64,000 nucleotides of DNA from Gemmatales bacterium (GCA_041640595.1 JBEPZY010000001.1:320001-384000), one strand, 5' to 3'. Counted from the stretch's first letter, positions 546-57,934 are shown. The notes: generated by a model not told the origin, from the sequence alone. Made by a program: numbers and translations.

Positions 546-766
546 GCTCCACCTCATGCCGAAAAATATCACCCATGCTCCTGAAACCGCTCCTTCCCCC
601 GATCCCTAATCCCGAACCCCGATTCCCGACTCCGAATTCCCAATCACTTTCGTAGCAGCTCCACCAGCATAGGCAACCTTTACTGCAATTTGCACGTAAG
701 CCGGAGACAGACTTCCCCACTTTTGCACTCACCCCACCAGGATGAACCAGCTTCACTGTTATTTAC

Positions 767-1160
767 CTGACTCATCCCCACTTTTGGGCCTCGGATAAAA
801 GCGCTCCGAGAAGGGCATTAAGTGCTTCGGCGGCCCGCACTTGCATTCGCTCGATCCTCTGTCGCCCCATGAAAAACTCTTCTCTGCTCAGCAGACCACT
901 AAGAACTTCCAAATCTTGCAGTTGCTCTGTCATCTGGCGCCCAATGAAAAACAGACTGTACGCTCCCTGGCGATTACTGCTGCACCACATCCCAGGCAAT
1001 TAGCGCTGCATGGCCACCAAAGCCGCTGCCAGCAAAATCCAATACGCCAACGCCAGAATCAACAGCATGCGATCCAACCAATCGGGGCACATCCGTCCCG
1101 AGTTACGTTAAGAAACACCAATGCAAGAATCAGTAGCAAGCGATTCAACCAGTTGGCACG
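767..1160 (-). pseudogene. IS4-family transposase C-terminal remnant with element end
   Basis: Minus-strand fragments WLDRMLLILALAYWILL / PGMWCSSNRQ..SLFFIGRQM / AQKWG* run into an IS10-like end CTGACTCATCCCCA at 767. Stops, frameshifts and internal duplications are present. Confidence 0.6.
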
Positions 1161-1316
1161 AGTGATGATATAGGTCGCCATGAGTGATCAACGTGTCGCG
1201 CTAGCCCCAGCCTAATCGCCGGTTCTAAGCATGCTGTTTATATTAGGTTCATATTAGCCTGGAGGCCCCGGGAGGATACATCGCGTACAGCCAGGACTCG
1301 CAATCGGCATGTCCAC

Positions 1317-1929
1317 GTGCTTGGGCAGGTGCACAGAGTGCGGTGGAATGACGCAAGTGCAAGTCGCAATCTGCTGGCCAAAGCGTTGGCTCAGGTATTT
1401 CCGCAGCCGTTGGTGGCCGATGCGGGCTATGATGCGGAGTGGGTGCACGAGTTTTGTCGGGAGCGATGGCGGGTGAACAGTTGGATACCGCTGGCGGTGC
1501 ATAGTGGGGATGGTCAGGTGCGAGGCCGCTGGCGTTCCCGAATGAGGGAGATGCCGAAGGTGTACCGTCAGCGTTGGCACGTGGAATCGTTCCTAAGTGG
1601 GCTGAACCGAACCACTGGATCGCAATTGACACGCTGTGTCCGATACGGCAAAGTCGGACGACGAAGGGCTGAACCGAACCACTAGATCGCAATTGACGGC
1701 GTGGCGGTAAAGTTAAGCCTGGCAACCAGGCGCTATACTGTCAGCCACAGTCGAGGACGTAGCGAGACAAGACGTTGAACAATGAAGCGGCTCTGCGCCA
1801 CAACCGACACTACGACGACGTCGAGCACCACGAGAAGACGTTGAACAATGAAGCGGCTCTGCGGGTGGTGGCTTACGCCATTCGCTGTTAGTTTGCGCCC
1901 ACACGCGACCATGTTTTCGGCAGAGCAAA
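1317..1929 (+). pseudogene. DDE transposase remnant (IS5/IS4 superfamily), 3' half, same family as 8694-9963
   Basis: Motifs ADAGYDAEW and YRQRWHVESF. Ends in ATGTTTTCGGCAGAGCAAA (1911-1929), 18/19 identical to the right TIR of the 8694-9963 element. Confidence 0.8.
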
Positions 1930-2222
1930 ATAGGTTCTAGCAAATGGAAATGCTTGCTCACTATCCAGAGATTTGGTCAACCGGAAAGACACCCCTACTG
2001 GCCTGGCCGACCAATTCTCTCCGGCGAATCCAAGAACAGGTTTAGTGCGGTACTTTTATGTCGGCGGCATGCTGAAAAATTTTGGCACCTTTTGCCAGCA
2101 GCCTTCGGTTAATTAGGTAGAGGCGGACGTGAGCCGGCCAGCGTTCGCAACGGTGCAAGCGAATCAACAACCCAACCGCCAAACCAATTCACAACCCAAC
2201 CACCAACAGAGGAGGACGAACC

Positions 2223-2690
2223 ATGCTGCGGAAATTTGCTCTCGCTGGAGTGCTTGCCCTGAGCGTGCACCTTGCACAACCTGTCGCCCGACTCGGCTCC
2301 GAAGCTGCTGCACAGTCTGTTACCCCAACCGACTACTACATCGCACGAGCCCTGCTCATCGCGGACAGGTATGAACGCGTTGCCAGTATGGCAGCTCAGC
2401 GGGGCGATATCTTCACTGTCGCTCTTGCCTATAGACAAATGGCTATAGAACTCTCCTGGCTTCCCACCTGGGGCGTTGATCCCGACGTGGTGAGAGTTAC
2501 TTACAAGGTAGCCGGGTTGGCCTTCTCCTATGGCAATGCAGTGCTCGAGCTAAACAACCCCTGGCTCCACGATCATTGGAAAGCAATGAGACTGCTGGAA
2601 CTGGCAGCGCGGATGGCCGACCTCGAAAACGAAATCAGGCACGCCCAGCTTAGAGCCGTGCTGAGGGCCAGTTCGGGCCCGTTCGACTAA
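2223..2690 (+). CDS. Hypothetical secreted protein (155 aa)
   Basis: GAGGAGG RBS upstream; N-terminal signal-peptide-like MLRKFALAGVLALSVHLA. Confidence 0.7.
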   Translation: MLRKFALAGVLALSVHLAQPVARLGSEAAAQSVTPTDYYIARALLIADRYERVASMAAQRGDIFTVALAYRQMAIELSWLPTWGVDPDVVRVTYKVAGLAFSYGNAVLELNNPWLHDHWKAMRLLELAARMADLENEIRHAQLRAVLRASSGPFD

Positions 2691-2812
2691 GCTGCCGACA
2701 AGTGTCCTTATATTCGAGTAGCAGGTCGCCCAGGCGGGAGGTCGCTCCGAAACGGGGGTGGCCTTCCCCAATTTTTGTTGCTGTACGCTTTTTTGTACTG
2801 GGCGCTCGCTGG

Positions 2813-4631
2813 CTATTTCCCACCGAGATCGCGATACAACTTTTCTACCAGCTTCAGAAGTTCTTGCGGTTCGGCCAAATTGGGATAGTTATCCACGACC
2901 TCGAGTAAAATTTTTCTCGCACGCTGTAGGTGCCGCAGGGCTTCCTCGGTTTTTCCTTGAGTTGCGTAAAGAATACCCACTGCGCCTAGCACCCTGCCGA
3001 GGTCAACCTTGTACTCTACCACCTGGGGATGCTCGGCCACCAGTTGCTCGCGCAGTTGCAAGGCCTGGCGATGGGCTTTTTCCGCCTCGGCCACGCGACC
3101 GGTGGCTTTCAGCAACAGGCCCAGGTTGTTGTGCGTGGTGGCCAGTTGCTGGCGGTACTCGGGCACCTGGGGATGCTCAGCCACCAGTTGCTCGCGCAGT
3201 TGCAGGGCCTGGCGATGGGCTTTTTCCGCCTAGTCCGCTCGACCGGTGTCTTTCAGCAACACGCCCAGGTTGTTGTGCGTGGTGGCCAGCTCCTGGCGGT
3301 ATTCAGGCACCTGGGGATGCTCAGCCACCAGTTGCTCGCGCAGTTGCAGGGCCTGGCGATAGGCTTTTTCCGCCTCGGCCACTCGACCGGTGGCTTCCAG
3401 CAACACGCCCAGGTTGTTGTGCGTGGTGGCCAGCTCCTGGCGGTATTTAGGCACCTGGGGATGCTCGGCCACCAGTCGCTCGCGCAGTTGCAGGGCCTGG
3501 CGATGGGCTTTTTCCGCGTCGGCCAGTCGACCGGTGACTTCCAGCAACAGGCCCAGGTTGTTGTGCATCCCAGCCAGTCCCTGGCGGTGCTGGGGCACCT
3601 GGGGATGCTCGGCCACCAGTTGCTCATAAAGTTGCAAGGCTTGGCGATACGCTTTTTCCGCCTCGGCCACTCGACCGGTGTCTTCCAGCAACAGGCCCAG
3701 GTTGTTGTGCGTGCTGGCCAGGTCCTGGCGGTATTCGGGCACCTGGGGATGCTCGGCCACCAGTCGCTCGCGCAGTTGCAGGGCTTGGCGAAAGGCTTTT
3801 TCCGCCTCGGCCACGCGACCGGTGGCTCGCAGCAACACGCCCAGGTTGTTGTGCGTGGTGGCCAGTTCCCGGCGGTGCTCGGGCACCTGGGGATGCTCGG
3901 CCACCAGTCGCTCGCGCAGTTGCAGGGCCTGGCGAAAGGCTTTTTCCGCCTCGTCCGCCCGACCGGTGGCTACCAGCGACACGCCCAGGTCGTTGTGCGT
4001 GCTGGCCAGGTCCTGGTGGTACTCGGGCACCTGGGGATGCTCGGCCACCAGACGCTCTTGCAGTTGTAAGGCTTGGCGATGGGCTTTTTCCGCGTCGGCC
4101 AGTCGACCGGTGGCTTGCAGCAACAGGCCCAGGTTGTTGTGCGTCATGGCCAGTTGCTGGCGGTACTGGGGCACCTGGAGATGCTCGGCCACCAGTTGCT
4201 CGCGCAGTTGCAAGGCTTGGCGATAGGCTTTTCCCGCCTCGGTCACTCGACCGGTGGCTTGCAGCAACGCGCCCAGGTTGTAGTGCGTGGCGGCCAGCTC
4301 CTGGCGGTATTTAGGCACCTGGGGATGCTCGGCCACCAGACGCTCGCGCAGTTGTAAGGCTTGGCGATGGGCTTTTTCCGCCTCGGCCACTCGGCCGGTG
4401 GTTTCCAGCAAGATGCCCAGGTTGTAGTGCGTTCTGCCCAGTTCCTGGCGGTACTCGGTCACCTGGGGATGCTCGGCCACCAGTCGCTCGCGCAGTTGCA
4501 GGGCCTGGCGATAGGCTTTTTCCGCCTCGGCCAGTCGACCGGTGGCTTGCAGCAAGTTGCCCAGGTTGTTGTGCGTGCTGGCCAGTTCCTGGCGGTATTC
4601 AGGCACCTGCGGATGCTCGGCCACCAGTTGC
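2813..4631 (-). pseudogene. TPR repeat cassette (42-aa/126-bp repeats) with no true N-terminus and one in-frame TAG at 3230-3232
   Basis: About 13-14 copies of AEHPQVPEYRQELAxTHNNLGxLLxxTGRxAEAEKAxRQALQLRExLV. ORFs 3230-4624 and 2813-3184 share a frame and are separated by a GAG>TAG change. The cassette begins mid-repeat at the kinase stop. Confidence 0.8.
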
Positions 4632-7223
4632 TCACTTCAAGTCGGCGATATACCACACGCGCACCGTCTTATCAGCACTCCCCGACACGAAACTGCGGCC
4701 GTCCGGCGTCACCGTTACGCTGGTGACCCGATCTTGGTGGCCAGAGAACCGCCGCACTTCTTTCCCCCTCGCCAAGTCCCACAAACGCACCGTTTTGTCC
4801 TCGCTTCCCGAAACGATGTATTTGCCATCGGGCGTCACCGCGACGCTACTGACCCCGCTCTCGTGCCCCGTGAACCGCCGCACTTCTTCCCCCGTCGCAA
4901 GCTGCCACAAACGCACCGTTTTGTCCTCGCTTCCCGAAACGATGTATTTGCCATCGGGCGTCACCGCGACGCTACTGACCCCGCTCTCGTGCCCCGTGAA
5001 CCGCCGCACTTCTTTCCCCGTCGCCAGGTCCCACAAACGCACCGTTTTGTCCCAGCTTCCCGAAACGACGTATTTGCCATCGGGCGTCACCGCGACGCTA
5101 CTGACCCCGCTCTCGTGCCCCGTGAACCGCCGCACCTCTTGCTCCGTCAACAACAGCGCCCACAAACGCCACAAACGCACGGTTTTGTCGCCGCTTCCCG
5201 AAACGACGCATTTGCCATCGGGCGTCACGGCGACACTCCAGACCGAACCCGCGTGCCCCGTGAACCGCTGCACTTCTTTCCCCGTCGCCAGGTCCCACAA
5301 ACGCACGGTCTGATCCGTGCTTCCCGAAACGACGTATTTGCCATCGGGCGTCACGGCGACGCTCAAGACCGGATTCTGGTGCCCCGTGAAACTGCGGACT
5401 TCCTCGGCACTGGCCAGGTCCCAGACGCGCAGCGTCATGTCCGAACTCCCTGACACTGCATGGCGTCCATCAGGGGTTACCGCAACGCAATTTACGGCGC
5501 GTTCGTGTCCGATCAGTCGCGTGCCTCGAGACTCTTGTAGCGCTAACCACAATAGCCTCTCTGCGTCGGCTAGCCTTCTTTCTGATTCAAGCAGCCTTCT
5601 CTGCATTAGAACCAGCCTTGTCTCTGTTTCATCTAACCTTCGCAGGAGATCGTGAGAAATCTGCTCTGCTTGTAGACGTAATTTGCGGGTAGATTCTAAT
5701 TCCTTAGCCAAGGACAGAACGCGTTCTCTTTCTGCTGCTAGCTGCTTTCGTGTTTCAGCTAATTCAAGAGCTAATTCCCGGCTAGCTTCTAATTCCTTCA
5801 CCAAAGACAGAACGCGTTCTTTCTCTGCCGCTAGCTGCTTTGTGATTTCAGCCGATTCGCGCTCCAATCGAAGAAGACGTTGTTCAGTGTCCCGTCGGTC
5901 CTCCTCCGTCTGCTTCAATTTCTCGTCCAAAGAGTCCAGGGCCGATGCCAGGTCGCGATTGGTCTGAGACAGCTGATGGTTCCTGGTGGCCAGCAGCAGG
6001 GAGAAAGCAACGGTCAAAGTCAGCACGAGAATCATTGACACTGCAGCGGCACCGGCCAGCCTCCCTTGCCGCCGCAACCATCGCGCCAACCGCTGCCCCA
6101 GCGGCTCACGATAAACCGCCACCGGCTCATCCGCCAGCCAGCGTTTTACATCCGCTGCCAGCTGCTCAGCGGTGGCATAGCGCGCCTGCGGGTCGTCCGC
6201 CATCGCCTTGCGGCAAATCGCTTGCAGTGCCGCCGGTATCCACGGCTTCAGCTGCCGCGGTGGTTTAGCCGGCCGGCCCAGACAAAATGGAGGCTGTCCG
6301 GTTAGCAGGTGATACAGTGTCGCTCCCAGGAGAAACACATCGGTACGCTCGTCGGCCGGCTTACCATCCACCTGCTCCGGAGCCATGTAGGCTTCCGTGC
6401 CCAGTTTTGCTCCGAGTCGGGTGTGGTGATCGTCCGCACCGTCGGGCGGCTTGGCCGAATCCGGAAAACCAGCGTCGCCGTCCACCAATTTCCGCCGTGC
6501 TAATCCCCAATCGAGCACAATGGTCTCGCCGAACCGGCCCAGGATGATGTTGTTCGGTTTCAGGTCGCGATGGATGATGCCCCTGCTGTGGGCATACGCC
6601 ACCGTCTGGCACACCGCCACAAACCGCTGCAACAGTTCACGAAATTGCAGTTGCACTTTCGTCCGGCGGAAGTCGCGGACACTCTGGCAGCTTTCGTGCC
6701 AGGCGTGGATGGCCTGGTCGAACCTTTCACCTTCGACATACCGCATCACGTAGTAGAGCCGGCCATCCTGCTGCCCGCGCATCAACACCGGCACCACGCC
6801 GGGATGTTCCAGCAACGCGGTGATTTCCGCTTCCCGCTGGAAACGGGCTGGCAGAGTGGGTGTACGGGCAAACTTGATGGCCACCTTGCGATTGAGGACC
6901 AGGTCGTCGGCCAGGTACACCACTCCCATGCCGCCTTTGCCGATTTTTTTCACGGTGCGATACTGAGCCACCTGCATAACCTTTTCCGGCGGCGGCACCT
7001 CAGGCGGAGGCTCTCTCCCAGCTCCCGGCGGTTGCAGGGAATCTTCCTCGAGCGACGTAAGGGTGTCTTCTTTTTCGGAAGGCGTGGCGGCCTGGCGTGA
7101 CGCCTCCGACTGCTCATTAGGTGGGTTTCCCCCTGCTAACTTTTGCGACTCCGCAGGTGGCTGCGTGGATTGCTGGTCCTGGGGCCTGTGAAACTCACCC
7201 TGGGCTCCCGGTTGCGTAGCCAT
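4632..7223 (-). CDS. Hanks-type Ser/Thr kinase + TM + coiled coil + WD40 repeats
   Basis: GKGGMGVVY, VAIK, HRDLKPNN, DWG and GTEAYMAPEQ motifs; a hydrophobic segment; seven GH...WD-type repeats. Confidence 0.95.
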   Translation of the reverse strand: MATQPGAQGEFHRPQDQQSTQPPAESQKLAGGNPPNEQSEASRQAATPSEKEDTLTSLEEDSLQPPGAGREPPPEVPPPEKVMQVAQYRTVKKIGKGGMGVVYLADDLVLNRKVAIKFARTPTLPARFQREAEITALLEHPGVVPVLMRGQQDGRLYYVMRYVEGERFDQAIHAWHESCQSVRDFRRTKVQLQFRELLQRFVAVCQTVAYAHSRGIIHRDLKPNNIILGRFGETIVLDWGLARRKLVDGDAGFPDSAKPPDGADDHHTRLGAKLGTEAYMAPEQVDGKPADERTDVFLLGATLYHLLTGQPPFCLGRPAKPPRQLKPWIPAALQAICRKAMADDPQARYATAEQLAADVKRWLADEPVAVYREPLGQRLARWLRRQGRLAGAAAVSMILVLTLTVAFSLLLATRNHQLSQTNRDLASALDSLDEKLKQTEEDRRDTEQRLLRLERESAEITKQLAAEKERVLSLVKELEASRELALELAETRKQLAAERERVLSLAKELESTRKLRLQAEQISHDLLRRLDETETRLVLMQRRLLESERRLADAERLLWLALQESRGTRLIGHERAVNCVAVTPDGRHAVSGSSDMTLRVWDLASAEEVRSFTGHQNPVLSVAVTPDGKYVVSGSTDQTVRLWDLATGKEVQRFTGHAGSVWSVAVTPDGKCVVSGSGDKTVRLWRLWALLLTEQEVRRFTGHESGVSSVAVTPDGKYVVSGSWDKTVRLWDLATGKEVRRFTGHESGVSSVAVTPDGKYIVSGSEDKTVRLWQLATGEEVRRFTGHESGVSSVAVTPDGKYIVSGSEDKTVRLWDLARGKEVRRFSGHQDRVTSVTVTPDGRSFVSGSADKTVRVWYIADLK

Positions 7224-7325
7224 GGTTCAGCCTCCGATGGAGATAACCTCGGCTGATGACCCGTCGCCTGCTACGTTTCGACTGGATTTTTATATACGGG
7301 CCGCCCTTCGGTGCCAGCCTATTGT

Positions 7326-7650
7326 CCACGGTGGGCTGACGCCCACCGCTCCTGGTTGTGTGTTCGCCAGTTGCCGAACAGCCCTTGATTTTCACCGCGC
7401 CGGGACGGTTTCACACACCACGGTGGGCTGACGCCCGCCGCTCCTGGTTGTGTGTTCGCCAGTCGCCGAACGGCCCTTGATTTTCACCGCGCCGGGACGG
7501 TTTCACACACCACGGTGGGTTGACGCCCGCCGCTCCTGGTTGTGTGTTCGCCAGTCGCCGAACGGCCCTTGATTTTCACCGCGCCGGGACGGTTTCACAC
7601 ACCACGGTGGGCTGACGCCCACCGCTCCTGGTTGTGTGTTCGCCAGTCGC
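7326..7650. repeat. 92-bp tandem repeat (3.5 copies) containing REP-like palindrome GGTGGGCTGACGCCCACC
   Basis: Units start at 7326, 7418, 7510 and 7602, are near-identical, and each carries a GC hairpin. Confidence 0.85.
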
Positions 7651-7720
7651 AATTTGCAATCTGACGTTCACACCTGTGGCACTTAGCACAACTGGTCCAG
7701 ATCGAGTCCAGCGTTGCGTA

Positions 7721-8695
7721 GGACCGATTACAAATTGCCCAGGCACATTGCACTACGACGGCGGGCGGGACCAAAGACAATAACCCCATGGTGCACGACG
7801 TTACAGGACAGCAATGGCCGCTCATCCACGTAGCGAGTAGTAAATGGCGAGTAGAAAGGTAGCCAACTAATCTTTCCGCCACCCAATACCCGTGGCCGAC
7901 CACACGCCGACGACCGCAAAACCCTCAATGGCATCCTCTAGGTGCTCCGTACCGGTTGTGCTTGGGAGGATATGCCCCGCTGTTATGGCAGTCCCATCAC
8001 CTGCTGGCGACGGCTGCGGAAGTGGCAAGAAGAAGGGGTCTGGGAAGGGATTGAGCGGGTGTTGTTAGCGAGCCTGGACGAACAGGGCAGGTTGGCCTGG
8101 CAACGGGCCTTTCTGGACGGCACGTTTGTGGCGGCAAAAAGGGGCGAAGCCGTGGGGCAGGTCAAGCGTGGCCAGGGCAGCAAGGTGATGGTGCTGGTGG
8201 ATGGTCAGGGATTGCTGTTGGGGACTATGGGGGCCAGTGCTCAGGAGGCAGAGGTGCATCTGACGGAAGCTACAGTGGAAACGGTTCGGATATAGCAGCA
8301 GCGCCGGCGCCTGTCTAAGCGAGCACGCGAGTTAATGTAGAAACCTTAGAACTGCGAGTTCGACACTTAGATTCATGCTCAGAAGCGGGTGCGGCAGTTG
8401 GTGGCGGACCGGGCATACGACAGCGATAGGTTGCGGGTTTGGCTTCGTCGGTGAGGGATTCGGCCCTGCATTCCGCGACGGTGAAATCGTCGTCAGTGGG
8501 GACGCTCGCCGGTGTTATCGGGGTATCGGGAGCGGTGGGTAGTGGAGCAACCGTGGTGGCGTTGGCGAAAGATCCGTGGTTGGTGGTATGTTAGGAGAAC
8601 TGGTGGTGCGTTATGAGCGGAAGGTGGAAATGTACCGTGCCTTTGTGCTCATAGCCTTCATTCTCATCTGCCTATGCGCATTTTTGAAATAGGTT
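7721..8695 (+). mobile_element. IS5-family (IS427-like) element, decayed transposase
   Basis: GRPHADDRKTLNGIL*VLRTGCAW, LDGTFVAAK with slippery AAAAAAGGGG, and ADRAYDS. Imperfect ends GGACCGATTACAAA / TTTGAAATAGGTT; several stops. Confidence 0.8.
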
Positions 8696-9963
8696 TGCTC
8701 TGTCGAAAACATCTTGGCGCGTGGGGCAGGAAGAGTTGGGATGCTCGGTCGTCGGACACGACCACGACAGCTCCCGATGGAACCGCCACGAAGTGGGATT
8801 AGCTACGATGCTCGGTCATAGATGGACCAATCATTGTCGGTCTTTGTTGCAACGGGTCCTCCTGCCCCTTTCGGGGGCACCCAGTCATGGAAGGACCAAT
8901 CATTGTCGGTCTTTGCTGTAACGTCCACACTCATTAGCTAAAATGCTCACCATGGAAGGAACCCATTTGCTCTTGGCTGTAACCAGGATACAACCGGATG
9001 CGGAGAAAATTGCGTCGGACGCAATGACGCATTTGCTCTAAGCTGTAACCAGGATCTAGCTTGATAGCTTCATACGGATCCTTGACTTCCGGCGACGCAT
9101 TTGCTCTAGGCTGTAACTAGGATACACCGCGTCCCTGGCGTGTGATTGTCGAAATGACAAGACGCATTTGCTCTAAGCTGTAATTAGGATGGCCCTGGAA
9201 TTAGCCCAGCAGGTGTTGCCCCCGTATTCGCACCCCAAAAGCCCACACCAATTCACCCAGCCGCAGTTGCTGGCCTGCTTGATTGTGAAAGCCTACCTGC
9301 GACAGAGCTATCGGGGCATCGTCGAACTGTTGGCCCTGTCGGATGGTCTGCGGCGGGTGCGTCCGCAGCCGTTGGTGGCCGACGCGGGCTATGGTGCGGA
9401 ATGCGTGCACGAGTTTTGTCGAGAGCGGTGGCGGGTGAACAGTTGGATACCGTGGCAGCGTCTGGACGGAAAGGGTAAGTGCAATCACCGCCTGCGGCTT
9501 CGGCCAACCAGGCACCCCGCTGGCAGTGTCTGGTCGGAATGGCCAAGTGCAATCACACCGTTGGAGGGCGTGGTCAATGACCCATGTTCCGAGCTGGCAG
9601 CGTCTGACCGAAAAGGGCAAGTGCGAGGCCGCTGGCGTTCCCAGATGGGAGATGCCCAAGGTGTACCGTCAGCGTTGGCACGTGGAATCGTTCCTAAGTG
9701 AGCTGAAGCGAACCACCGGCTCGCAATTGACGGCGCGGCGGTAATGTTAAGCTTGGCAACCAGGCGCTACACTGTCAGCCACAGTTGGGGGCGCGGCGGG
9801 GAAAAAACTGTAGGAGGATGGTCATGTGCAGCGCCGGTGCTATACTGTCAGCCACAGCTGAGGAGGTGGCGGGAGTGGACGTTGAACAATGAAGTGGCAT
9901 TGCGGGTGGCGGCCTACGCCGTTAGTTTGCGCCCACACGCAACTATGTTTTCGACAGAGCAAA
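8694..9963 (+). mobile_element. IS element (DDE transposase, IS5/IS4 superfamily) with perfect 19-bp TIRs; internally deleted and interrupted
   Basis: TTTGCTCTGTCGAAAACAT (8694-8712) and its exact reverse complement (9945-9963). Fragments YSHPKSPHQFTQPQLLACL, ADAGYGAE and YRQRWHVESF. Confidence 0.85.
8815..9190. repeat. CRISPR-like mini-array (6 units, 61-69-bp period) inside the IS, upstream of the transposase fragment
   Basis: 39-bp repeats at 8815 and 8884, a hybrid unit at ~8950-8989, and 30-bp repeats GACGCATTTGCTCTARGCTGTAAYYAGGAT at 9026, 9094 and 9161. Unique spacers of ~27-38 bp. Confidence 0.7.
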
Positions 9964-17138: not shown

Positions 17139-17774
17139 TGGCTCGGCACTGCCTGCTGCGAGCACTCTTCACTTGCAGTGCCAATAACTTCCAGGCCATC
17201 TAACATATCTCGGCGTTTGCTGCCGCAGGAACTCTTCACTTGCGTGGCCTGATTCTTTCCAGCGCACCGGACACCAGCCAACCAATGTTTCGAGCGGAAA
17301 ACCTGTGAGATTCCCCTGCCCAATTAGTTTTTTGCCACAGCTCCAGCGACCATCAGCAATAACCGTTGGCGGCAGAGACTCGCCGCGTAACTGTGGCATG
17401 GGCTGCGCAACTATACCAACTATCAGTGGCAAACATCGGCAACAGTGGCGGGCCTACCCAGTAGTTACCAGGCCGACCCGGTTGACACCGATAAGCATCG
17501 GCGGTGCTGGCAGACCACGTCGGCAACCAGCTTGGCCCGAAACACTCGCCTTTTCGCGGAAACGGGAAAAGCCGGCAGCTGATATGTTTGCATCGGCTAG
17601 CAACTCTTATGCAGCCTTTTGCAGAAACGCAGAGAAACTGGTGCACAACCTGGGAGTGATCAAGACGACCTGCAGCAAGCTAACCGCTCTAATAGTTTTG
17701 GCAACGGCTTCTAACCATATGCGAATCGTCGTGGCAACGAGCCTTGGCGGAACTGTCCAGGTTCGATTCGGACA

Positions 17775-20545: not shown

Positions 20546-20587
20546 GGATTAGAAATCCCTTGCTCTATCCAGTTGAGCTACGGGGGC
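20514..20587 (-). tRNA. tRNA-Arg(TCT), CCA not encoded; island attachment site
   Basis: GCCCCCGTAGCTCAACTGGATAGAGCAAGGGATTTCTAATCCCTAGGTTGCAGGTTCGAGTCCTGCCGGGGGTA folds as a cloverleaf with anticodon TCT. Confidence 0.95.
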
Positions 20588-20588
20588 A

Positions 20589-21195
20589 ATGTGGATGCCT
20601 TCCATCGCGTAGTGCTTGCCCTCTGCGGAGCCCAGGCCGCCAAGACTCTCAGCCGGGACGATGTAGATGCTTCCCATCGCGTAGTACTTGCCGGCCGTCA
20701 GGCGCAAGTCAGCAAGACTCCCTGTCGAGAGGCAAATGCAGATGCATCCGGTCGGCTAATGATAAGCCCTCGCCAGGGGCAGGCCAGCAAGGCTCCCAGT
20801 CGGGGGCGGTGTAGATGTATCCGGTCGCCTAGTGCTTGTCTCCTGCCAAGCCAGCAAGACTCTCAGTCGAGAGGCAATGGAGATATATCCGGTTGCCTAA
20901 TGATAAGCCCTCGCCAGGGGCAGGCCAGCAAGGCTCCCAGTCGGGGGCGGTGTAGATGTATCCGGTCGCCTAGTGCTTGTCTCCTGCCAAGCCAGCAAGA
21001 CTCTCAGTCGAGAGGCAATGGAGATATATCCGGTTGCCTAATGATAAGCCCTCGCCAGGGGCAGGCCAGCAAGGCTCCCAGTCGGGGGCGGTATAGATGT
21101 ATCCGGTCGCCTGGTGCTTGTATCCTGCCAAGCCAAGTCAGGAAGACTGCCAGTCGAGAGGCAATGTAGATGCATCCGCTCGGCTAATGCTTGCT
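20589..21195. repeat. Tandem array of ~67-75-bp related units with a 141-bp higher-order repeat
   Basis: About 9 units starting (A/G)TGYAGATG...; the 141-bp dimer recurs at 20761, 20902 and 21043. Confidence 0.8.
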
Positions 21196-36210: not shown

Positions 36211-36525
36211 ATGTACTTTCTGGTGGCTTACGACATTTCCGATCCGAAACGGTTACAGCGAGTCGCCCGCTTTATGGAACGGCGTGCTTTACGCTGCCAG
36301 AAGTCGGTCTTCATGTACCAGGGTGATGTCCAGGGGGTCAGTCGCCTTTTAAACGAGGTAGTCGAGTTGCTCGATACGCAGTCCGACATTGTGCAGGTCT
36401 GGCAACTGGCGCGAGGTCAGCCCTTGACCGGTTGGTATCGCGGTCGGCCCATGCCGCTGGACCCGGCTGGCTGTGTCGTAGCAGGTAACCGTGCCGTCCT
36501 GGTCGAAAAACCCCGACGGGGCTAA
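36211..36525 (+). CDS. cas2: CRISPR-associated Cas2
   Basis: YFLVAYDISDPKRLQRVA...QKSVF; AAGGAG RBS. Confidence 0.93.
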   Translation: MYFLVAYDISDPKRLQRVARFMERRALRCQKSVFMYQGDVQGVSRLLNEVVELLDTQSDIVQVWQLARGQPLTGWYRGRPMPLDPAGCVVAGNRAVLVEKPRRG

Positions 36526-36564
36526 GGGGATTCGACCCTCGCTAATCATGTTTAGCGGCTATTT

Positions 36565-36854
36565 GTGCGAGATGACAGCGGGTTACTTTCTACGCGGGCC
36601 TACGGATACGGTCACGAAGGCAGTCATCCATGGAATCGCCCAGCTCCGTTACTCCCGTAAGTCGGTATAGCTCCCGCGGTGCAACCCGAGCGCTTCTCGA
36701 GGGTTGCTGCGCATGGATTTTCCTGACCCGGTCTCGCGTTCCTACGAAACCAATCAAGCACCGGTTGGCGCCATTGAAAGGGGCCCCGATAGCTGGTGCA
36801 GAAACAGCGTCGCGGGTAGGAAAATTTTTGTCACATCGAACGGTCATCTTGCGT
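36565..36854 (+). ncRNA. Putative structured RNA between cas2 and the RT
   Basis: 12-bp closing stem 36565-76/36843-54 plus at least four nested stems read by eye; starts GTGCG. Confidence 0.45.
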
Positions 36855-36903
36855 TATCTAGGAGGAAGGAAAGTCAACCCATCACACGAAAGGATGCCTA
36901 GCC

Positions 36904-38556
36904 ATGCCAGCGATGAACGGCCAACCAGTGATTGAGGTGTTACCACGGGTTTATCGGAGTATTCCCGCTCCCCAGCGAGCTCTGGAAGAGCTGCAGGCAG
37001 AGCTTTACGCAGAGGTACGGGCGAAAGGTCGGCCCGTCGGCCAACTGGTAACTGCTCTGCTCGACCGCCGCAACTTGTACGCTGCCTGGCGATTTGTCCG
37101 GAATGCCGATGGTGCTGACACCCCGGGGCCGGATGGCCTGACTTGCAAGGACCTGGAACAATCGGCGGATTCCGGGGATGCTTTGCATCGCTTGTTCGAA
37201 CAGATTAGCCGGGACATACTTGATGGCCGTTATTGTCCGCAACCGCCGCGCTGGGTAGAGGTTCCCAAGCCTAATGGTGGTACTCGGCGTTTGGGCATCC
37301 TGACGGTGCGGGATCGCCTTGTGCATGCCGCTCTCAAAAACGTTCTCGAACCTATCCTGGAGCCGATTTTTACTTCCGCCAGCTTTGGTTTTCGACCGGG
37401 GAGAAGCACCACTGCTGCTTTGCTGGCGGCCATTAGATGGGCCGGCCCAGATGATCACGGCCGGCTCGTTTATCCCTATGCCATGCATCTGGATATCGAG
37501 GACTGTTTCGACACCATAGACCACCAGCATCTGTTCAGCGCCCTTTCCGAGCATGTTGCCGATGCTATCGTCCTGAAGCTTCTTCGCAAGCTGTTGGAAG
37601 CCTGTGCCCATTCGGTGCGTCGCTGGTTTCGCACTTACTACGTTGGGCTGTTGCAGGGAAGTGTGCTTTCGCCGCTTTTATGCAATTTGGCTCTGCACTC
37701 CCTCGACAAGGTTATGCTCAACATGCGCAGCGCCACCCAGAAGGGTATCGCTTATTTCCGTTATGCGGACGACTTACTCATCCTGGCTCGCAGCGAAGAG
37801 CTGGCAGTCAAGGCTTTTCGTTCTGCCAGCGCTTTTTTGCAGAGCATCGGACAGCGCTTCAAGGCCCGCAAACCGGAAATCGCTCTCCTCACTCGCGGTG
37901 TCGAATGGCTTGGCATGCGTATCTGCGTCACCGTCAATCCCTGGACCTCGAAACTTCAGCCCGGTTACTACATTCCAGATGCCTGTGTGGCCGAGATGGT
38001 CCAACGCCTTCAGGAAATGACCGTTCCTCCCAGTGCTAAGCTATCGGAGCAAACCTTCGACCTCCGCCAATGGATCATATCTATCAACCGGCAGTTGCAA
38101 GGCTGGCACAATGCCTATCAATACGCCGAGAATTTTTACCAGGTGGCCCGTACACTCGATGACGTTGTTCAGCAGCGGTTCGAAGAGCTTCTGATGGCTG
38201 TCACCGGCAAAGGGCGTCAGTACGTACGGGGCACTTATCGGGTTCGTTTGCCCCGCGGATTCACGACTTGGCAGGTAGATGGGGAGCAGTTGCTGGTGCT
38301 ATCGTCCAAGCCGCCGCATTTCCCCAATCCGAAACTGCTCTACCAACGACCCGCCTGGATGCGTGCTCCGCAGAACGCCATCCTACCGCAAGCCAACGCT
38401 GGCCAGACGCCATTCTGGTTGAACAATTTGCCTCAGCAGGCTCTGCCTCAGCCGCAAGCCCAACCGCCGAATGCCTTTGCTAACCCTCAGGATACCACAA
38501 ATCAACCTGGGCCCCCCACAGGAACTAATCCGGCCACCGGTCAGCACAATCCCTAA
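36904..38556 (+). CDS. CRISPR-associated reverse transcriptase (group II intron-like, stand-alone)
   Basis: TPGPDG, PKPNGGTRRLGILTVRDRLVH, SFGFRPGRS, LDIEDCFDTIDH, QGSVLSPLLCN, RYADD; thumb-like INRQLQGW; P/Q-rich tail. Confidence 0.93.
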   Translation: MPAMNGQPVIEVLPRVYRSIPAPQRALEELQAELYAEVRAKGRPVGQLVTALLDRRNLYAAWRFVRNADGADTPGPDGLTCKDLEQSADSGDALHRLFEQISRDILDGRYCPQPPRWVEVPKPNGGTRRLGILTVRDRLVHAALKNVLEPILEPIFTSASFGFRPGRSTTAALLAAIRWAGPDDHGRLVYPYAMHLDIEDCFDTIDHQHLFSALSEHVADAIVLKLLRKLLEACAHSVRRWFRTYYVGLLQGSVLSPLLCNLALHSLDKVMLNMRSATQKGIAYFRYADDLLILARSEELAVKAFRSASAFLQSIGQRFKARKPEIALLTRGVEWLGMRICVTVNPWTSKLQPGYYIPDACVAEMVQRLQEMTVPPSAKLSEQTFDLRQWIISINRQLQGWHNAYQYAENFYQVARTLDDVVQQRFEELLMAVTGKGRQYVRGTYRVRLPRGFTTWQVDGEQLLVLSSKPPHFPNPKLLYQRPAWMRAPQNAILPQANAGQTPFWLNNLPQQALPQPQAQPPNAFANPQDTTNQPGPPTGTNPATGQHNP

Positions 38557-38588
38557 TCCTCTGACTCTTTTCCCAGGAGGCACCCATC

Positions 38589-39617
38589 ATGGCGAAGCAC
38601 ATCACCTACGTGCAAACCCCGGTTGCCCATGTGGTCGGACCAGGCAAACTTAGGATTATCAACGGCCGCCTAGCTTTCACCACGGGCAACGGTACTCCCC
38701 TGCGCCTTGACCTCAACACTTTGCGTGCCATTTACTGCTACGGCAACGTCGGGGCAACTGATGAGGCGATACAACTGCTTTTTCAGCACGGCATTGACGT
38801 CGTTTGGCTTTCTCCAGCAGGTAACGAGTGTCGCGGACGACTCGTCCGCTACGATTCCAGCTCCGCTGCTTTGCGGATGATACAGCATCGCGTTTTGGCC
38901 CATCCACCCGCTCGACTGGAACTGGCCCGCTTCATCGTCCAGGCCAAAATTGAATCCCAAATGAAGGCCGCCAGGCATTATCAGCGCCAGGGGCTTTCTA
39001 TTGCCGGCAAATTCATCGAACAACTTCAGTCCGTTTTGGCTATGCTGCCCAGCGTGGCCTCTCTGGACGCCCTTCGTGGCTTTGAAGGACAGGCCTCCGC
39101 TCTCTGGTACGAGCTTTTCTCCCAGCTTCTTGTTCCCCCGTGGACCTTCCCTGGCCGCAACCGCAGACCACCTACAGACCCAGTCAATGCCTTGCTTAGC
39201 CTCGGCTACACCTTGCTCTTCCGCCGCACAGAGGCTAGAACCGAAGCTCACGGCTTGGAAGTCGCTCTGGGAGCTTTGCATGAATTCCGACACGGCCGAC
39301 CTTCCCTGGCCTGTGACTTTGTGGAGCCGTTTCGCGTCCCCGCTGTCGACCGATGGGTCCTGACTATTTGCAATCAACACCGCCTGCAGCCCCAACATTT
39401 CCAAAATACCCCGGAAGGTATCCGTTTGACCCCTGACATGTTTCCTCGTATCATTGCTTCGTGGGAACAACATTTCGTATCTCACGGTTTTGAACGCTCT
39501 TTGGAAAACTGCCTTCAGCAATGGATAAGCATCCTACGGTCCTGGGCGAACCGCTTGCCTGACCCCCTTTTGCCACCCCAGGACAGTGCACCCCCAGGCA
39601 ACACCGTAACTTCCTGA
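38589..39617 (+). CDS. cas1: CRISPR-associated endonuclease Cas1
   Basis: LRGFEG, RNRRPPTDPVNALLSLGY, GALH, LACDFVEPFR; AGGAGG RBS. Confidence 0.96.
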   Translation: MAKHITYVQTPVAHVVGPGKLRIINGRLAFTTGNGTPLRLDLNTLRAIYCYGNVGATDEAIQLLFQHGIDVVWLSPAGNECRGRLVRYDSSSAALRMIQHRVLAHPPARLELARFIVQAKIESQMKAARHYQRQGLSIAGKFIEQLQSVLAMLPSVASLDALRGFEGQASALWYELFSQLLVPPWTFPGRNRRPPTDPVNALLSLGYTLLFRRTEARTEAHGLEVALGALHEFRHGRPSLACDFVEPFRVPAVDRWVLTICNQHRLQPQHFQNTPEGIRLTPDMFPRIIASWEQHFVSHGFERSLENCLQQWISILRSWANRLPDPLLPPQDSAPPGNTVTS

Positions 39618-39748: not shown

Positions 39749-42700
39749 CTCGCAACTTAGACCCCAACCAATAGGGGATTGAAACGATAGCGGCTACTAC
39801 CATTGTTCCTCCCTCCTTGGGCTCGCAACTTAGACCCCAACCAATAGGGGATTGAAACGCCGGGCCCTGGCCTTCCGGCTGGAGACCAGGGCCAGCTCGC
39901 AACTTAGACCCCAACCAATAGGGGATTGAAACAGTTCTGATGAGAAAGTTATACCCGCCGGCGTAGATGCTCGCAACTTAGACCCCAACCAATAGGGGAT
40001 TGAAACTGCATCTGTTGGCAAAGACTATCAATACCTTTAGAAACTCGCAACTTAGACCCCAACCAATAGGGGATTGAAACCGCCAGGGTTCCGGCCTGTA
40101 TCCGCGCTGCCGCCCCAGCCTCGCAACTTAGACCCCAACCAATAGGGGATTGAAACACTCGCAAGACGGGTATTGGCCTGTATCCGCGCTGCCGCCTCGC
40201 AACTTAGACCCCAACCAATAGGGGATTGAAACGACACTGCTGCCCCAGCAATAATCATGTCCAACCACCTCGCAACTTAGACCCCAACCAATAGGGGATT
40301 GAAACGTCGAAACTACTTCTTGCCCCGCCGCCCCCGCCCGGCTCGCAACTTAGACCCCAACCAATAGGGGATTGAAACCACTGCTGCCCCAGCAATAATC
40401 ATGTCCAACCACCTCCTCGCAACTTAGACCCCAACCAATAGGGGATTGAAACAATCATGTCCAACCACCTCCTTGGGCCCGTTGATAAACTCGCAACTTA
40501 GACCCCAACCAATAGGGGATTGAAACGGTGCGAGGCAGCTACTTCTTGTTTTTGCTACGCCCGCCTCGCAACTTAGACCCCAACCAATAGGGGATTGAAA
40601 CTGAACTTGCACCCTAAGCTTTTCCAGCTCCGCCAGACTCGCAACTTAGACCCCAACCAATAGGGGATTGAAACCATTGCGGCTCCGGCTATCATACTCC
40701 CCTCCTTTGGGCTCGCAACTTAGACCCCAACCAATAGGGGATTGAAACCTCCGGCTATCATACTCCCCTCCTTTGGGCCGAATAACTCGCAACTTAGACC
40801 CCAACCAATAGGGGATTGAAACAATCCGACAATGATGGATACTAGGCAGATTGCGGCTCTCGCAACTTAGACCCCAACCAATAGGGGATTGAAACCACAC
40901 AAACAACAACATCTTGGATAACCTTTGGTAACTCGCAACTTAGACCCCAACCAATAGGGGATTGAAACACCAACCAAACCTCCGATGCCGCCACGCATTC
41001 CCGGCTCGCAACTTAGACCCCAACCAATAGGGGATTGAAACAGCAGACGACCCCTGGCCGGACTCGATGAGTTGCATGACTCGCAACTTAGACCCCAACC
41101 AATAGGGGATTGAAACAGTATCCAACCAAGAATTACACTGACCAGTGCCAAACTCGCAACTTAGACCCCAACCAATAGGGGATTGAAACAATGACCATCT
41201 AACACTTTACCTTCATAAAGACAACCTCGCAACTTAGACCCCAACCAATAGGGGATTGAAACACCGTAGACGCCGAGGATGAGAGGCCTAAGCATTCAAT
41301 CTCGCAACTTAGACCCCAACCAATAGGGGATTGAAACCAAAGACGAGGCCTGCGGCTCCTCACTGGTCCACCCCTCGCAACTTAGACCCCAACCAATAGG
41401 GGATTGAAACACATTTCGTCAGAATCTGTTTGCCCCAACATTAACGCCTCGCAACTTAGACCCCAACCAATAGGGGATTGAAACGGCCAGGAGGAATCCG
41501 ACTAGCACAGATACTAAGGACTCGCAACTTAGACCCCAACCAATAGGGGATTGAAACACTGCCGCGCCGACAACAATCATAATTCTCCCCTCCTCTCGCA
41601 ACTTAGACCCCAACCAATAGGGGATTGAAACCAACGAATTTTGCAAAATTGGTAACGCAGTTTCCAAACTCGCAACTTAGACCCCAACCAATAGGGGATT
41701 GAAACGCGGGCGATGCGGGCCAGTATGAACCCGAGGAGGACCTCGCAACTTAGACCCCAACCAATAGGGGATTGAAACCCCGAGGAGGACAGAAACGAGA
41801 GAAATGCCAGCGCCCTCGCAACTTAGACCCCAACCAATAGGGGATTGAAACGTCTTCTTGGCCCGGGGCTCCCGCCGGGCCCGGCGGGCCTCGCAACTTA
41901 GACCCCAACCAATAGGGGATTGAAACATCATGTCCTCTCCTCCTGCGTCTGGGGCCCGTTGATCTCGCAACTTAGACCCCAACCAATAGGGGATTGAAAC
42001 CGGGCGATGGCCCTGTCGACGGAACTTACGGATCTGCACTCGCAACTTAGACCCCAACCAATAGGGGATTGAAACAGTGGTGCCCGCGCTTCCGCCGCAG
42101 AAGCGCGCCGACCTCGCAACTTAGACCCCAACCAATAGGGGATTGAAACGGGCACTCCAATTGAAGTGGTGCCCGCGCTTCCGCCGCCTCGCAACTTAGA
42201 CCCCAACCAATAGGGGATTGAAACCTTCCCGGCGTCCGCCGCCTGCGGCTCCCCACTGGGCCTCGCAACTTAGACCCCAACCAATAGGGGATTGAAACTT
42301 GCCCGCCGCGGGCCTCGTCAAAGACGAGGCCGCACTCGCAACTTAGACCCCAACCAATAGGGGATTGAAACATCGTTCATCAAACCCATCAACCAAATCC
42401 AACTCACAACTCGCAACTTAGACCCCAACCAATAGGGGATTGAAACAAAAGTACTGCGCCACGCGCTCCATATGGCTGCCTCCTCGCAACTTAGACCCCA
42501 ACCAATAGGGGATTGAAACATACCAGCTCCAACAATAATCATGTCCTCTCCTCCTCGCAACTTAGACCCCAACCAATAGGGGATTGAAACACCAGCTCCA
42601 ACAATAATCATGTCCTCTCCTCCTGCGCTCGCAACTTAGACCCCAACCAATAGGGGATTGAAACTTGCGGGTCTTGCCCCGCCGCCGCTCCCGCCGAGAC

Positions 42701-57700: not shown

Positions 57701-57934
57701 GGGATTGAAACCCAACAACGTTTTCAACCGTAGCAACGCGGGCGGTGCTCGCAACTTAGACCCCAACCAATAGGGGATTGAAACACCGGCTTGGAGATAG
57801 CTCAGGCAGAACCGACCCGATCTCGCAACTTAGACCCCAACCAATAGGGGATTGAAACGACCGCGTCCGGACCCTGGCCAGAATAAAGCCGACCAGCCTC
57901 GCAACTTAGACCCCAACCAATAGGGGATTGAAAC
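39749..57934 (+). CRISPR. Giant CRISPR array, 37-bp repeat CTCGCAACTTAGACCCCAACCAATAGGGGATTGAAAC, ~245 repeats
   Basis: Near-invariant repeat with CCCC/GGGG stem and ATTGAAAC 3' end; spacers ~34-40 bp; one repeat with an extra A at 48321-48358. Count estimated from span / ~74 bp. Confidence 0.99.

Follow-up and report, generated by a model that had tools for sequence, protein, structure and literature searches.

The window, i.e., the whole stretch of 64,000 nucleotides from a Gemmatales bacterium (GCA_041640595.1, JBEPZY010000001.1:320001-384000) analyzed here, contains a decaying island of insertion sequence (IS) remnants as well as a CRISPR adaptation module and its canonical array. Repeat search and period scan revealed ten to twelve repeat-insert-repeat units between positions 840 and 9873, within ~3 kb of IS/repeat remnants. 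Such units fall into two size classes, one with a ~30-bp duplication and a period of 65-69 bp (30-class) and one with a ~37-bp duplication and a period of 72-76 bp (37-class). The features are as follows, with a strand given where one applies:

840..952, unit 1, 37-class: 38-nt copies (840-877, 915-952) 82% alike, 37-nt insert (878-914), period 75; host is a repeated element of unknown function
1044..1151, unit 2, 37-class dimensions (37 + 34): 37-nt copies 81% alike, 34-nt insert, period 71
1296..1930, plus strand, IS remnant copy 1: 3' portion of a gene for a DDE transposase, with two interruptions; Pfam DDE_Tnp_1 on 1317-1685
1599..1697, unit 3, 30-class: 32-nt copies (1599-1630, 1666-1697) 97% alike, 35-nt insert (1631-1665), period 67
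1766..1863, unit 4, 30-class: 32-nt copies (1766-1797, 1832-1863) 97% alike, 34-nt insert (1798-1831), period 66
7942..8600, plus strand, single-copy remnant of the IS4/5 family: Pfam DUF4096 on 7942-8295
8729..8817, weak candidate unit: 22-nt copies 77% alike, period 67; found by repeat search only, below both period-scan thresholds
8815..8923, atypical unit: 40-nt copies (8815-8854, 8884-8923) 90% alike, 29-nt hairpin-forming insert, period 69
8960..9190, 30-class neo-array: four ~30-nt repeats, three different spacers (37, 38 and 37 nt), periods 66, 68 and 67
9189..9963, plus strand, IS remnant copy 2: transposase gene from start to end, broken, recognized by paralogy; weak DDE_Tnp_1 match on 9526-9744
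9453..9624, unit of three repeats within IS copy 2, class ambiguous: periods 68 and 74, common core of 30-36 nt
9763..9873, 37-class unit: 38-nt copies (9763-9800, 9836-9873) 82% alike, insert 9801-9835, period 73
36211..39617, plus strand, genes for adaptation in the 37-nt system: cas2 (36211-36405), stand-alone reverse transcriptase (36904-38556), cas1 (38589-39617)
39749..57934, plus strand, canonical array 1: 37-nt repeat in 247 copies, with spacers of 33-40 nt (mode 37)

The three segments listed with Pfam matches are the only ones in which transposase domains were found. The initial annotation had placed the units in transposase DNA, and this applies to some of them, whereas 840-1154 lies in a repeated element that gave no Pfam match at E ≤ 0.01 and is not identifiable as transposase. 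IS copy 1 has paralogs at window 9362-9963, C3:418820-419413, C8:39105-39979 and C2:80241-80436, and the IS4/5-family remnant shows stops and frame breaks at 8296-8380. This remnant also contains a weaker pair that had been proposed at ~8317/8382, the best 24-nt window of which has 15 of 24 matches, i.e., chance level for the search used. The other units listed in the initial annotation were recovered at 840/915, 1599/1666, 9453/9521/9595 (three copies) and ~9764/9837, and its 1047/1118 and 1769/1835 pairs were placed at 1044-1080/1115-1151 and 1766-1797/1832-1863, respectively. The mini-array at 8960-9190, the 8815/8884 pair and the weak 8729/8796 pair are additions to that list. Atypical dimensions are found at 8815 (40 + 29) and at 9453-9624, where the 30-36-nt core is combined with inserts of 32-44 nt that both start with AATCAC. 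A further candidate unit outside this region (17142..17243, no strand, 35-nt copies 77% alike, period 67) begins 4 nt past the end of a dynamin-like ORF (15405-17138).

The adaptation module in the window was identified on the basis of Pfam RVT_1 and Cas_Cas1, NCBIfam, and the Cas2 family PF09827 (C1:356211-356405). Reverse transcriptase and Cas1 are encoded by separate genes and not as the RT-Cas1 fusion that had been assumed. A second canonical array belongs to a type I-B system on contigs C8 and C10 and comprises 344 copies of a 30-nt repeat with a spacer mode of 36 nt; its Cas1 and Cas2 are encoded at C8:22581-23348 and C8:22207-22422. Both adaptation modules are complete, with Cas1 and Cas2 beside each array. 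The units had originally been related to a single system with 37 + 37 dimensions, but half of them, including 1599/1666, 1766/1832 and 8960-9190 in the window, have the 30 + 36 dimensions of the type I-B system.

The general picture is provided by a genome-wide period scan, which yielded ~340 units outside the canonical arrays, about 25 of which are expected as background (2-3 per period). There are 163 pairs at periods 65-69 and 177 at periods 72-76, while each off-peak period from 40 to 64 holds 0-7. Copy length follows the period, with peaks of 30-31 nt at periods 65-68 and of 37-38 nt at 72-76; these coincide with the canonical repeats of 30 and 37 nt, such that the duplication has the length of a resident repeat. 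The inserts in turn follow the resident spacer-length distributions, as the period distributions of units and arrays run parallel: periods 65/66/67/68/69 are represented by 25/67/43/22/6 units and by 36/165/108/26/5 cases in array 2 (C8 and C10), and periods 72-76 by 21/45/51/47/13 units and 12/81/99/38/11 cases in array 1. A single spacer is present in 326 of 344 loci. The units form ~298 clusters, nearly each with its own repeat sequence derived from local DNA, and only C3:328836 carries a degenerate canonical repeat. Similarity to the canonical repeat of their own class is slightly higher for the targets than for control DNA from nearby, with mean best matches of 10.5 versus 9.2 of 30 (p = 1e-4) for the 30-class and 13.3 versus 11.6 of 37 (p = 8e-6) for the 37-class; a strong target motif was not found, the information content being at most 0.3 bit per position.

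Paralogs without the insertion reveal its polarity. Such empty sites are available for 37 of the 340 units. For units 840/915, 1599/1666, 1766/1832 and 9763/9836 in the window, as well as for the growth of 8960-9190 by its extra two units, they can be followed base by base; for 8815/8884 the empty site (C3:266116-266278, 71% identity) was found by BLAST. Unit 1 has a single-copy counterpart at C3:426032-426485 that lacks the 75-bp insertion. Unit 2 has no empty site and the same paralog carries both of its copies, so that unit 2 predates this duplication; judged from these sequences, it is older than unit 1. The 67-bp insertion of unit 3 is missing from IS copy 2 and from the C3 copy. Unit 4 is empty at C2:80241-80406, C3:419281-419413 and window 9836-9963, and the homologous site in another IS copy (C2:407699 = C3:561426) holds a different insert, which means that this site was struck twice independently. 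Unit 9763..9873 is shared with C3:419213 and missing from IS copy 1 (window 1668-1797) and from C2:80260-80439. The neo-array at 8960-9190 ends at the ATG of IS copy 2; its paralog at C1:296670-296882 has only two repeats with an identical first spacer, and the window copy is therefore longer by 135 bp (two units). The three-repeat unit at 9453-9624 has a paralog at C8:39397-39840 in which the same two inserts are amplified to six repeats with a period of 74.

These alignments bear on the question of whether the units are simple tandem duplications that arose by replication slippage, part of each copy having diverged beyond recognition. The diverged copies at 840, 1044 and 9763 (81-82%) would fit, and true coding tandem repeats of ~72 bp do exist in the genome, e.g., at window 20585-21189 and C2:81092-82572. 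However, the period scan retained only pairs whose insert is less than 50% identical to the stretch one period on either side, alignment with the paralogs shows that one copy and a foreign insert were cleanly added, not that a segment was doubled, and two fixed copy lengths would not be expected from slippage. We consider this explanation exceedingly improbable. The inserts are likewise missing from paralogous copies. An assembly or binning artefact might be suspected in a draft of 42 contigs with uneven unit density, but filled sites of window 700-2000 recur in contigs of four independent metagenome runs on hot springs, which belong to four studies (one possibly the source), with unit 1 covered by contigs from runs X1 and X4 and unit 3 bridged or covered by contigs from runs X1-X4. 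Furthermore, the units are embedded in long contigs, copies shared by paralogs have diverged and contamination is estimated at 0.44%, which leaves an artefact next to no probability.

For 301 of the 340 inserts there is no second copy in the genome. The protospacer covered by the insert at C2:174386 is also that of the canonical spacer C8:12371. Contig C15, which is matched by 31 of 341 array-2 spacers, is also matched by the IS insert at C2:407699 and C3:561426 (30/35) and by the spacer of the degenerate canonical-type mini-array C3:328836 (34/37). The PAM of array 2 is HGG (G at +2 in 35 of 39 cases and at +3 in 32 of 39). Few inserts can be compared with it: the flank of one self-derived insert is compatible with HGG/CCN when the insert's end, which is ambiguous, is set at 36 nt, a CCG flank occurs among the C15 matches only at mini-array C3:328836, and an HGG/CCN flank is absent for the C15-matching IS insert, which represents one event in two IS copies at a target that does not resemble the repeat.

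Formally, a short insert between long target duplications resembles a transposon, and hairpin inserts exist (e.g., 8855-8883 and 8990-9025). The 30- and 37-bp duplications could therefore be ascribed to some other element that makes staggered cuts and has no relation to CRISPR adaptation, e.g., a tiny mobile element or a casposase-like integrase. This is very improbable, since the inserts do not form a family, the two resident arrays match the units in both duplication lengths and both insert-length distributions, a canonical spacer has the same protospacer as one of the inserts, and the class of the units follows the type of Cas1 in the relatives G001, G002 and G003. Neither a conserved insert family with terminal repeats nor such units in genomes without matching arrays were seen. 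Hairpins are not a general feature of the inserts as had been suggested: some fold, but as a group their degree of structure does not exceed that of random genomic 36-mers. A MITE or small transposon with target-site duplication was rejected on these grounds, i.e., single inserts and random-like structure.

In the relatives, where samples were small and several contigs had been picked because they matched repeat-rich query DNA, G001 with only the 37-type Cas1 has 15 non-canonical units at periods 72-77 and none at 65-69 in 317 kb, G002, also with the 37-type Cas1 only, has 7 at 72-76 (3-4 of which resemble a coding tandem repeat) and none at 65-69 in 533 kb, and G003 with both Cas1 types has 4 at 65-68 and 3 at 72-75 in 189 kb. 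The unit class thus appears to track the Cas1 module. In 400 kb of G027, which lacks Cas1, no clean unit was found.

Taken together, we regard the units as fixed scars of off-target, i.e., non-canonical, spacer integration by the two Cas1-Cas2 integrases of this genome, with a probability of about 90%. This reading builds on the observed duplication and insert lengths, the insertion polarity at empty sites, the uniqueness of the inserts and the sources they share with spacers, the distribution of the units, and the correlation of unit class with cas modules in the relatives; catalysis by Cas1-Cas2 and the module responsible for each unit are inferred. Cas1-Cas2 lets both 3' ends of a prespacer attack opposite strands of the target with a stagger fixed by the enzyme, and gap repair duplicates the staggered segment on either side of the spacer. 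The type I-B module would accordingly create 30-bp duplications with spacers of ~36 nt and the Cas2/RT/Cas1 module 37-bp duplications with spacers of ~37 nt; these sizes agree with repeat and spacer of each module's canonical array. Integration would be nearly independent of sequence, with a weak preference for targets similar to the cognate repeat, mostly at the repeat ends.

The process is very probably the "neo-CRISPR" process already known from laboratory E. coli. Nivala, Shipman and Church reportedly described, in Nat Microbiol in 2018, how non-canonical integration by over-produced Cas1-Cas2 of the type I-E system leads to neo-CRISPR loci. The units share with these the spacer-sized insert, the repeat-length duplication of a non-repeat target outside an array and the occasional presence of more than one spacer. 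In contrast to E. coli, however, a wild genome carries ~340 fixed scars here, two other modules (type I-B and RT-linked Cas2/RT/Cas1) would be at work, and the same process is indicated in three congeners. Off-target integration of this kind is also treated in PMC7054753, and natural evidence from two other species is called circumstantial in a preprint (bioRxiv 10.1101/148544). In an in vitro study, Pyrococcus furiosus Cas1-Cas2 attacked non-CRISPR sites in pairs spaced 30 bp; these sites are weakly repeat-like, mainly at their borders (G1, T2) (PMC6698737). Our targets are similar in their weak overall resemblance to the repeat, and 21 exact-length 30-class units have G at position 1 and T at position 2 with frequencies of 0.48 and 0.40; the P. 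furiosus data stem from a plasmid assay with purified archaeal proteins, whereas our units are products formed in vivo, fixed and filtered by selection. Integration fidelity is set by host factors, IHF in E. coli type I-E and HU in Thermotoga profunda type III-A, and Cas1-Cas2 alone integrates promiscuously in such systems (PMC13769266). By analogy, promiscuous integration of this kind might explain why off-target events are frequent; loss of such a factor was not found, as two DNABII genes are present in the genome studied and likewise in three congeners.

The regular repeat-spacer architecture resembles that of a canonical array or orphan mini-array, and 8960-9190 would pass as a four-repeat array. 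Unlike in a canonical array, the repeat of each locus is local host sequence (a transposase gene or its 5' region), and there is no common repeat family, no leader and mostly just one spacer. Classification as canonical CRISPR arrays was rejected, as no conserved repeat is common to the units and the arrays of the systems.

The initial annotation had attributed the units to a Cas1-type integrase, which is borne out by dimensions, empty sites, spacer sources and relatives, and had considered anti-transposon mutagenesis. Under this idea, transposase genes would be the preferred targets of a Cas1-type integrase or of a defence function that disrupts them. The accumulation in IS/repeat remnants of the window, the transposase site struck twice and a 2.8-fold excess of units in repeated DNA over the genome-wide expectation (29 versus 10.4) speak in favor. 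Compared with dispensable DNA as the null, however, there is no excess: unit density per Mb is 135-178 in repeated/IS DNA, 290-296 in unique non-ORF DNA and 26 in long ORFs. Moreover, 252 of 281 units lie outside repeated DNA, and part of the IS counts reflects single events copied by transposition (281 units, 269 distinct inserts). An IS-directed process is therefore very unlikely, and an anti-transposon role is unsupported. Units cluster more than predicted, 122 of 269 having a neighbor within 1 kb versus 59 ± 9 in a category-matched null, and their density ranges from 8 to 150 per Mb among contigs, i.e., about tenfold, despite similar ORF density. Both observations count against the off-target reading, as do the background share of the units, the scarce PAM matches, the lack of a strong target motif, the atypical dimensions of some window units, the missing empty site of 1044/1115 and the small samples of the relatives. 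Following the off-target reading, scars would persist where insertion is harmless, namely in non-coding DNA, pseudogenes and IS remnants, which would account for their number in the decaying IS island of the window, and old scars would be used again and give rise to small neo-arrays. The scars are spread over the whole genome of this hot-spring planctomycete and do not concern transposons in particular.

Within the stretch 840-9873 of the window, a direct-repeat search and a separate period scan agreed on a series of units in which near-identical direct-repeat copies enclose unrelated inserts, and the repeat-insert-repeat structures described there in the initial annotation are therefore real.

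Units in the window (positions, period, copies, insert)
840-877 / 915-952: unit, period 75, copies 38 nt (82% identical), insert 37 nt
1044-1080 / 1115-1151: unit, period 71, copies 37 nt (81%), insert 34 nt
1599-1630 / 1666-1697: unit, period 67, copies 32 nt (97%), insert 35 nt
1766-1797 / 1832-1863: unit, period 66, copies 32 nt (97%), insert 34 nt
8815-8854 / 8884-8923: unit, period 69, copies 40 nt (90%), insert 29 nt
8960-9190: four-repeat mini-array, periods 66, 68 and 67, repeats of about 30 nt, three different spacers
9453 / 9521 / 9595: three-repeat unit, periods 68 and 74, copies 30-36 nt, inserts 32-44 nt
9763-9800 / 9836-9873: unit, period 73, copies 38 nt (82%), insert 35 nt

The direct-repeat search also returned a weak pair at 8729/8796 (22 nt, 77%). 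A further weak case that had been proposed at about 8317/8382 does not rise above chance, neither at period 66 nor re-registered at 74 (15/24 matches by script, 19/37 by eye). The hosts had all been taken for transposase sequence, which holds for 1317-1685 and 7942-8295 and, weakly, for 9526-9744 (Pfam), and not for the repeated element carrying the first two units (840-1151), in which no Pfam match was found. Both inserts of the three-repeat unit (9453-9624) start with AATCAC, as is also seen at C8:39397-39840, a paralog on contig C8 in which amplification of this two-spacer unit has led to six repeats; the second insert starts with AATCACACCGTTGG, which nearly matches the 30-nt canonical repeat AATCCCACCGTGGT at positions 6-19. 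Beyond the island, candidate units lie at 17142-17243 (35-nt copies 77% alike, period 67), starting 4 nt past the end of a dynamin-like ORF, and at 28396-28480 (20-nt copies 80% alike, period 65). An ORF for 198 amino acids without Pfam hit (20573-21169) is made up of a 72-bp/141-bp repeat in nine copies that are 70-100% alike (20573-21189); this is a true tandem repeat and its period falls into the CRISPR range by coincidence.

When the complete draft genome (4.45 Mb, 42 contigs; the window corresponds to C1:320001-384000) was scanned for interspersed direct repeats at every period from 30 to 250 with at least 21/24 matches, two sharp peaks emerged, at periods 65-68 and 72-76. After masking of the canonical arrays and removal of pairs whose insert resembled the neighbouring period, 163 pairs remained at periods 65-69 and another 177 at 72-76. 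Each period outside the peaks (40-64) contains 0-7 pairs, so about 25 of the 340 units are expected as background. The scan for short direct repeats at CRISPR-like periods that had been suggested on the basis of the window thus places such units all over the genome and in two classes, with copy-length modes of 30-31 nt (periods 65-68) and 37-38 nt (periods 72-76), and nearly every locus has a repeat sequence of its own. A third peak at periods 87-93 was considered as a further set of spacer scars and rejected, because it stems from a single shared palindromic repeat family; this REP-like element (core CCACGGCGGGCTGACGCCCGCCGCTC, 87-93-bp spacing) occurs at 7326-7650 of the window and accounts for 203 pairs genome-wide.

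The genome harbors two canonical CRISPR systems.

Arrays and adjoining genes
39749-57934 of the window: array 1, 247 repeats of 37 nt, spacers 33-40 nt (mode 37)
36211-36405: cas2, preceding array 1
36904-38556: stand-alone reverse transcriptase, preceding array 1
38589-39617: cas1, preceding array 1
C8:1-21080 and end of contig C10: array 2, 344 repeats of 30 nt, spacers 35-40 nt (mode 36), adjoining type I-B genes (cas1b, cas2, cas4, cas3, cas5, cas7) and a Cmr module

In their period distributions, the dispersed units run parallel to the two arrays, and as judged from these dimensions the two unit classes appear to correspond to the two resident systems. A strong target motif was not detected (at most 0.3 bit per position in orientation-EM logos). 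The duplicated segments resemble their own canonical repeat slightly better than nearby control DNA does, with best matches of 10.5 vs 9.2 of 30 (p = 1e-4) and, for the 37-nt class, 13.3 vs 11.6 of 37 (p = 8e-6), and this weak resemblance is concentrated at the segment ends. Identical 34-nt copies with period 66 are located at C8:21408, about 330 bp beyond the cas-proximal end of array 2, and in a genome of the same order (G019) a period-72 pair (C1:8007984) lies about 670 bp before the cas-proximal end of an array; near-miss integration beside the leader may be common.

Evidence for insertion comes from paralogs, which served as empty-site controls in place of orthologs from congeners: the unit-bearing stretches of C2:371001-391000 found no match in congeners, whose genes are only about 75% identical. 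The empty site, i.e., flank, one copy, flank, is found in a paralog at another place of the genome for 37 of the 340 units. Thus, the 67-bp and 66-bp insertions at 1599 and 1766, located in a first remnant of a DDE transposase element (1296-1930), are missing from a second remnant (9189-9963, compared at 9620-9960) and from C3:419060-419430, while the 73-bp insertion at 9763 is missing from the first remnant and common to the C3 copy. The 75-bp insertion at 840 is missing from C3:426032-426485. Both of these paralogous copies contain the 1044/1115 pair, which must therefore be older and has no empty site. Compared with its paralog at C1:296670-296882, with which it has the first spacer in common, the mini-array at 8960-9190 is longer by two units. 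A homologous transposase site (…GTTGAAC.ATGAAGCGGC.CTGCG) holds a different insert at C2:407699 = C3:561426 and was therefore hit a second time, independently. The window units are no assembly artefact; contigs from four hot-spring metagenome runs of four studies, one of them possibly the source, span the filled sites of window 700-2000. Joints skipping a unit, i.e., empty-site alleles, were not encountered in these runs, an absence that proves nothing since the contigs are assembled. Copies are identical in 18 of the 281 units left after a copy-length filter and less than 90% identical in 124, so the process is both old and recent.

The inserts, too, appear to behave like spacers. As many as 301 of the 340 have no second copy in the genome, and the other 39 mostly reflect one event in duplicated elements. 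Contig C15 (C15:1-9585; 9.6 kb, 50% G+C) is matched by 31 of 341 array-2 spacers, of which 29 reside at C8 17.5-21.0 kb, the array end adjoining cas2 and cas1, and 28 share one orientation; its protospacers are flanked by HGG (CCN on the other strand), with G at +2 in 35/39 and at +3 in 32/39 cases. A megablast of C15 against a phage collection gave no match, and PHROGs recognized none of its nine ORFs; the contig probably represents a mobile element that is resident or was encountered recently. Matches to the same contig were obtained for the IS-borne insert at C2:407699 = C3:561426 (30/35) and, at C3:328836, for the spacer from a degenerate mini-array of canonical type (34/37, CCG flank), and one protospacer is covered by both the insert at C2:174386 and the canonical spacer at C8:12371. 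The 23S rRNA gene at C5:166219-170885 is matched by two inserts (C3:484583, C3:554031), with 34/34 identical positions in one case and 27/37 in the other. This rRNA gene match covers 4667 bases vs 2925 positions of the model, so that roughly 1.7 kb of additional sequence seem to be present in the gene; further LSU rRNA matches are found on contigs C27 and C36. As an exact pattern, insert 1631-1665 had no match in viral contigs. Hairpins, pointed out earlier in several inserts, are not enriched (mean DNA folding energy -3.0 kcal/mol vs -3.5 for random genomic 36-mers; canonical spacers -3.3 and -3.9). Taken together, the array-matched dimensions, the empty-site paralogs and the spacer-like inserts argue strongly for a Cas1-type integrase, as the initial annotation had proposed.

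Its second proposal, that IS DNA is targeted specifically, possibly as an anti-transposon mutagenesis, proved to be wrong. Repeated DNA, 3.7% of the genome, does hold 29 of 281 units vs 10.4 expected. The fair comparison, however, is with other dispensable DNA.

Unit density by type of DNA
Repeated DNA: 135-178 units per Mb
Unique non-ORF DNA: 290-296 units per Mb
Unique DNA in ORFs of 200 aa or more: 26 units per Mb

After in silico removal of the insert, 39.5% of units fall inside an ORF of 200 aa or more vs 84.6% of 3000 random positions. The excess in IS remnants is therefore accounted for by counter-selection of insertions that disrupt genes. Units are clustered (122 of 269 with a neighbour within 1 kb vs 59 +/- 9 in a null preserving contig and ORF category); the clusters mix both classes, and the IS island is one of them. 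Density differs about tenfold between contigs C1-C12, from about 8 per Mb (C6, C7) over 23 per Mb (C1, with a 450-kb stretch at 450-900 kb containing no scar at all) to 95-150 per Mb (C2, C3, C4, C8, C9, C10). Coding density is not the cause, as ORFs of 200 aa or more make up 0.80-0.89 throughout; possible reasons for the spread are the replicon, the position on the chromosome or the make-up of the bin.

AspRS assigns the organism to Planctomycetota, and the metagenome runs containing the window sequence come from hot springs. Related genomes were compared in small samples, for which several contigs had been chosen because they matched repeat-rich query DNA.

Units in related genomes
G001 (same genus): 37-type Cas1 only, 317 kb, 15 units at periods 72-77, none at 65-69, 2 at other periods
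G002 (same genus): 37-type Cas1 only, 533 kb, 7 at 72-76 (3-4 resemble a coding repeat), none at 65-69
G003 (same genus): both Cas1 types, 189 kb, 4 at 65-68, 3 at 72-75
G004 (same family): Cas1 present, 386 kb, 1-2 non-canonical units
G019 (same order): two large arrays, 400 kb, 2 non-canonical units
G027 (same order): no Cas1, 400 kb, only proline-rich low-complexity pairs

Loss of an IHF/HU fidelity factor was considered as a cause and discarded, since the genome has two DNABII genes, as does each of the three congeners.

Off-target Cas1-Cas2 integration has been described in E. coli upon over-expression and in test-tube assays, and its natural frequency and cost have been an open question. 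Neo-CRISPR denotes non-canonical spacer integration as reported for E. coli over-producing type I-E Cas1-Cas2 (10.1101/148544; PMC7054753), natural evidence was described as circumstantial and concerned two other species (10.1101/148544), and HU has recently been shown in vitro to suppress off-target integration by a type III-A Cas1-Cas2 (PMC13769266). The mechanism inferred for our genome matches this E. coli process. In vitro, P. furiosus Cas1-Cas2 integrates off-target at sites whose weak repeat resemblance is concentrated at the ends (PMC6698737), like that of the duplicated segments described here. A literature search that reached mostly beyond subscription journals retrieved no natural genome-wide case. 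New here are the scale reached in nature, the involvement of two types of module and the controls available within one genome.

Scars are also re-used: 326 loci have two repeats, 14 have three, one has four and three have six to seven (tandem amplifications of two-spacer units). Fifteen loci contain two or three different spacers in register, where fewer than 0.2 are expected by chance on a rough estimate (about 340 events confined to about 0.7 Mb of tolerant DNA). We tentatively propose, with a probability of roughly one in three, that off-target integration in this genus is no rare event but one of the chief sources of small insertions in dispensable DNA, and that it also serves as a functioning route by which new arrays arise. 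If true, natural de novo array birth would have been caught in progress for type I-B and RT-linked modules. For CRISPR finders this means that some scar loci will be called arrays, and where pseudogenes or IS elements decay in such genomes, a targeted process can wrongly be assumed. The genus offers several hundred natural integration sites of two integrases with empty-site controls in the same genome. These sites lend themselves to reading out target preferences and ruler lengths, to measuring the selective filtering of insertions (26 per Mb in long ORFs vs 290 per Mb in non-ORF DNA) and to testing whether new arrays are born from scars.
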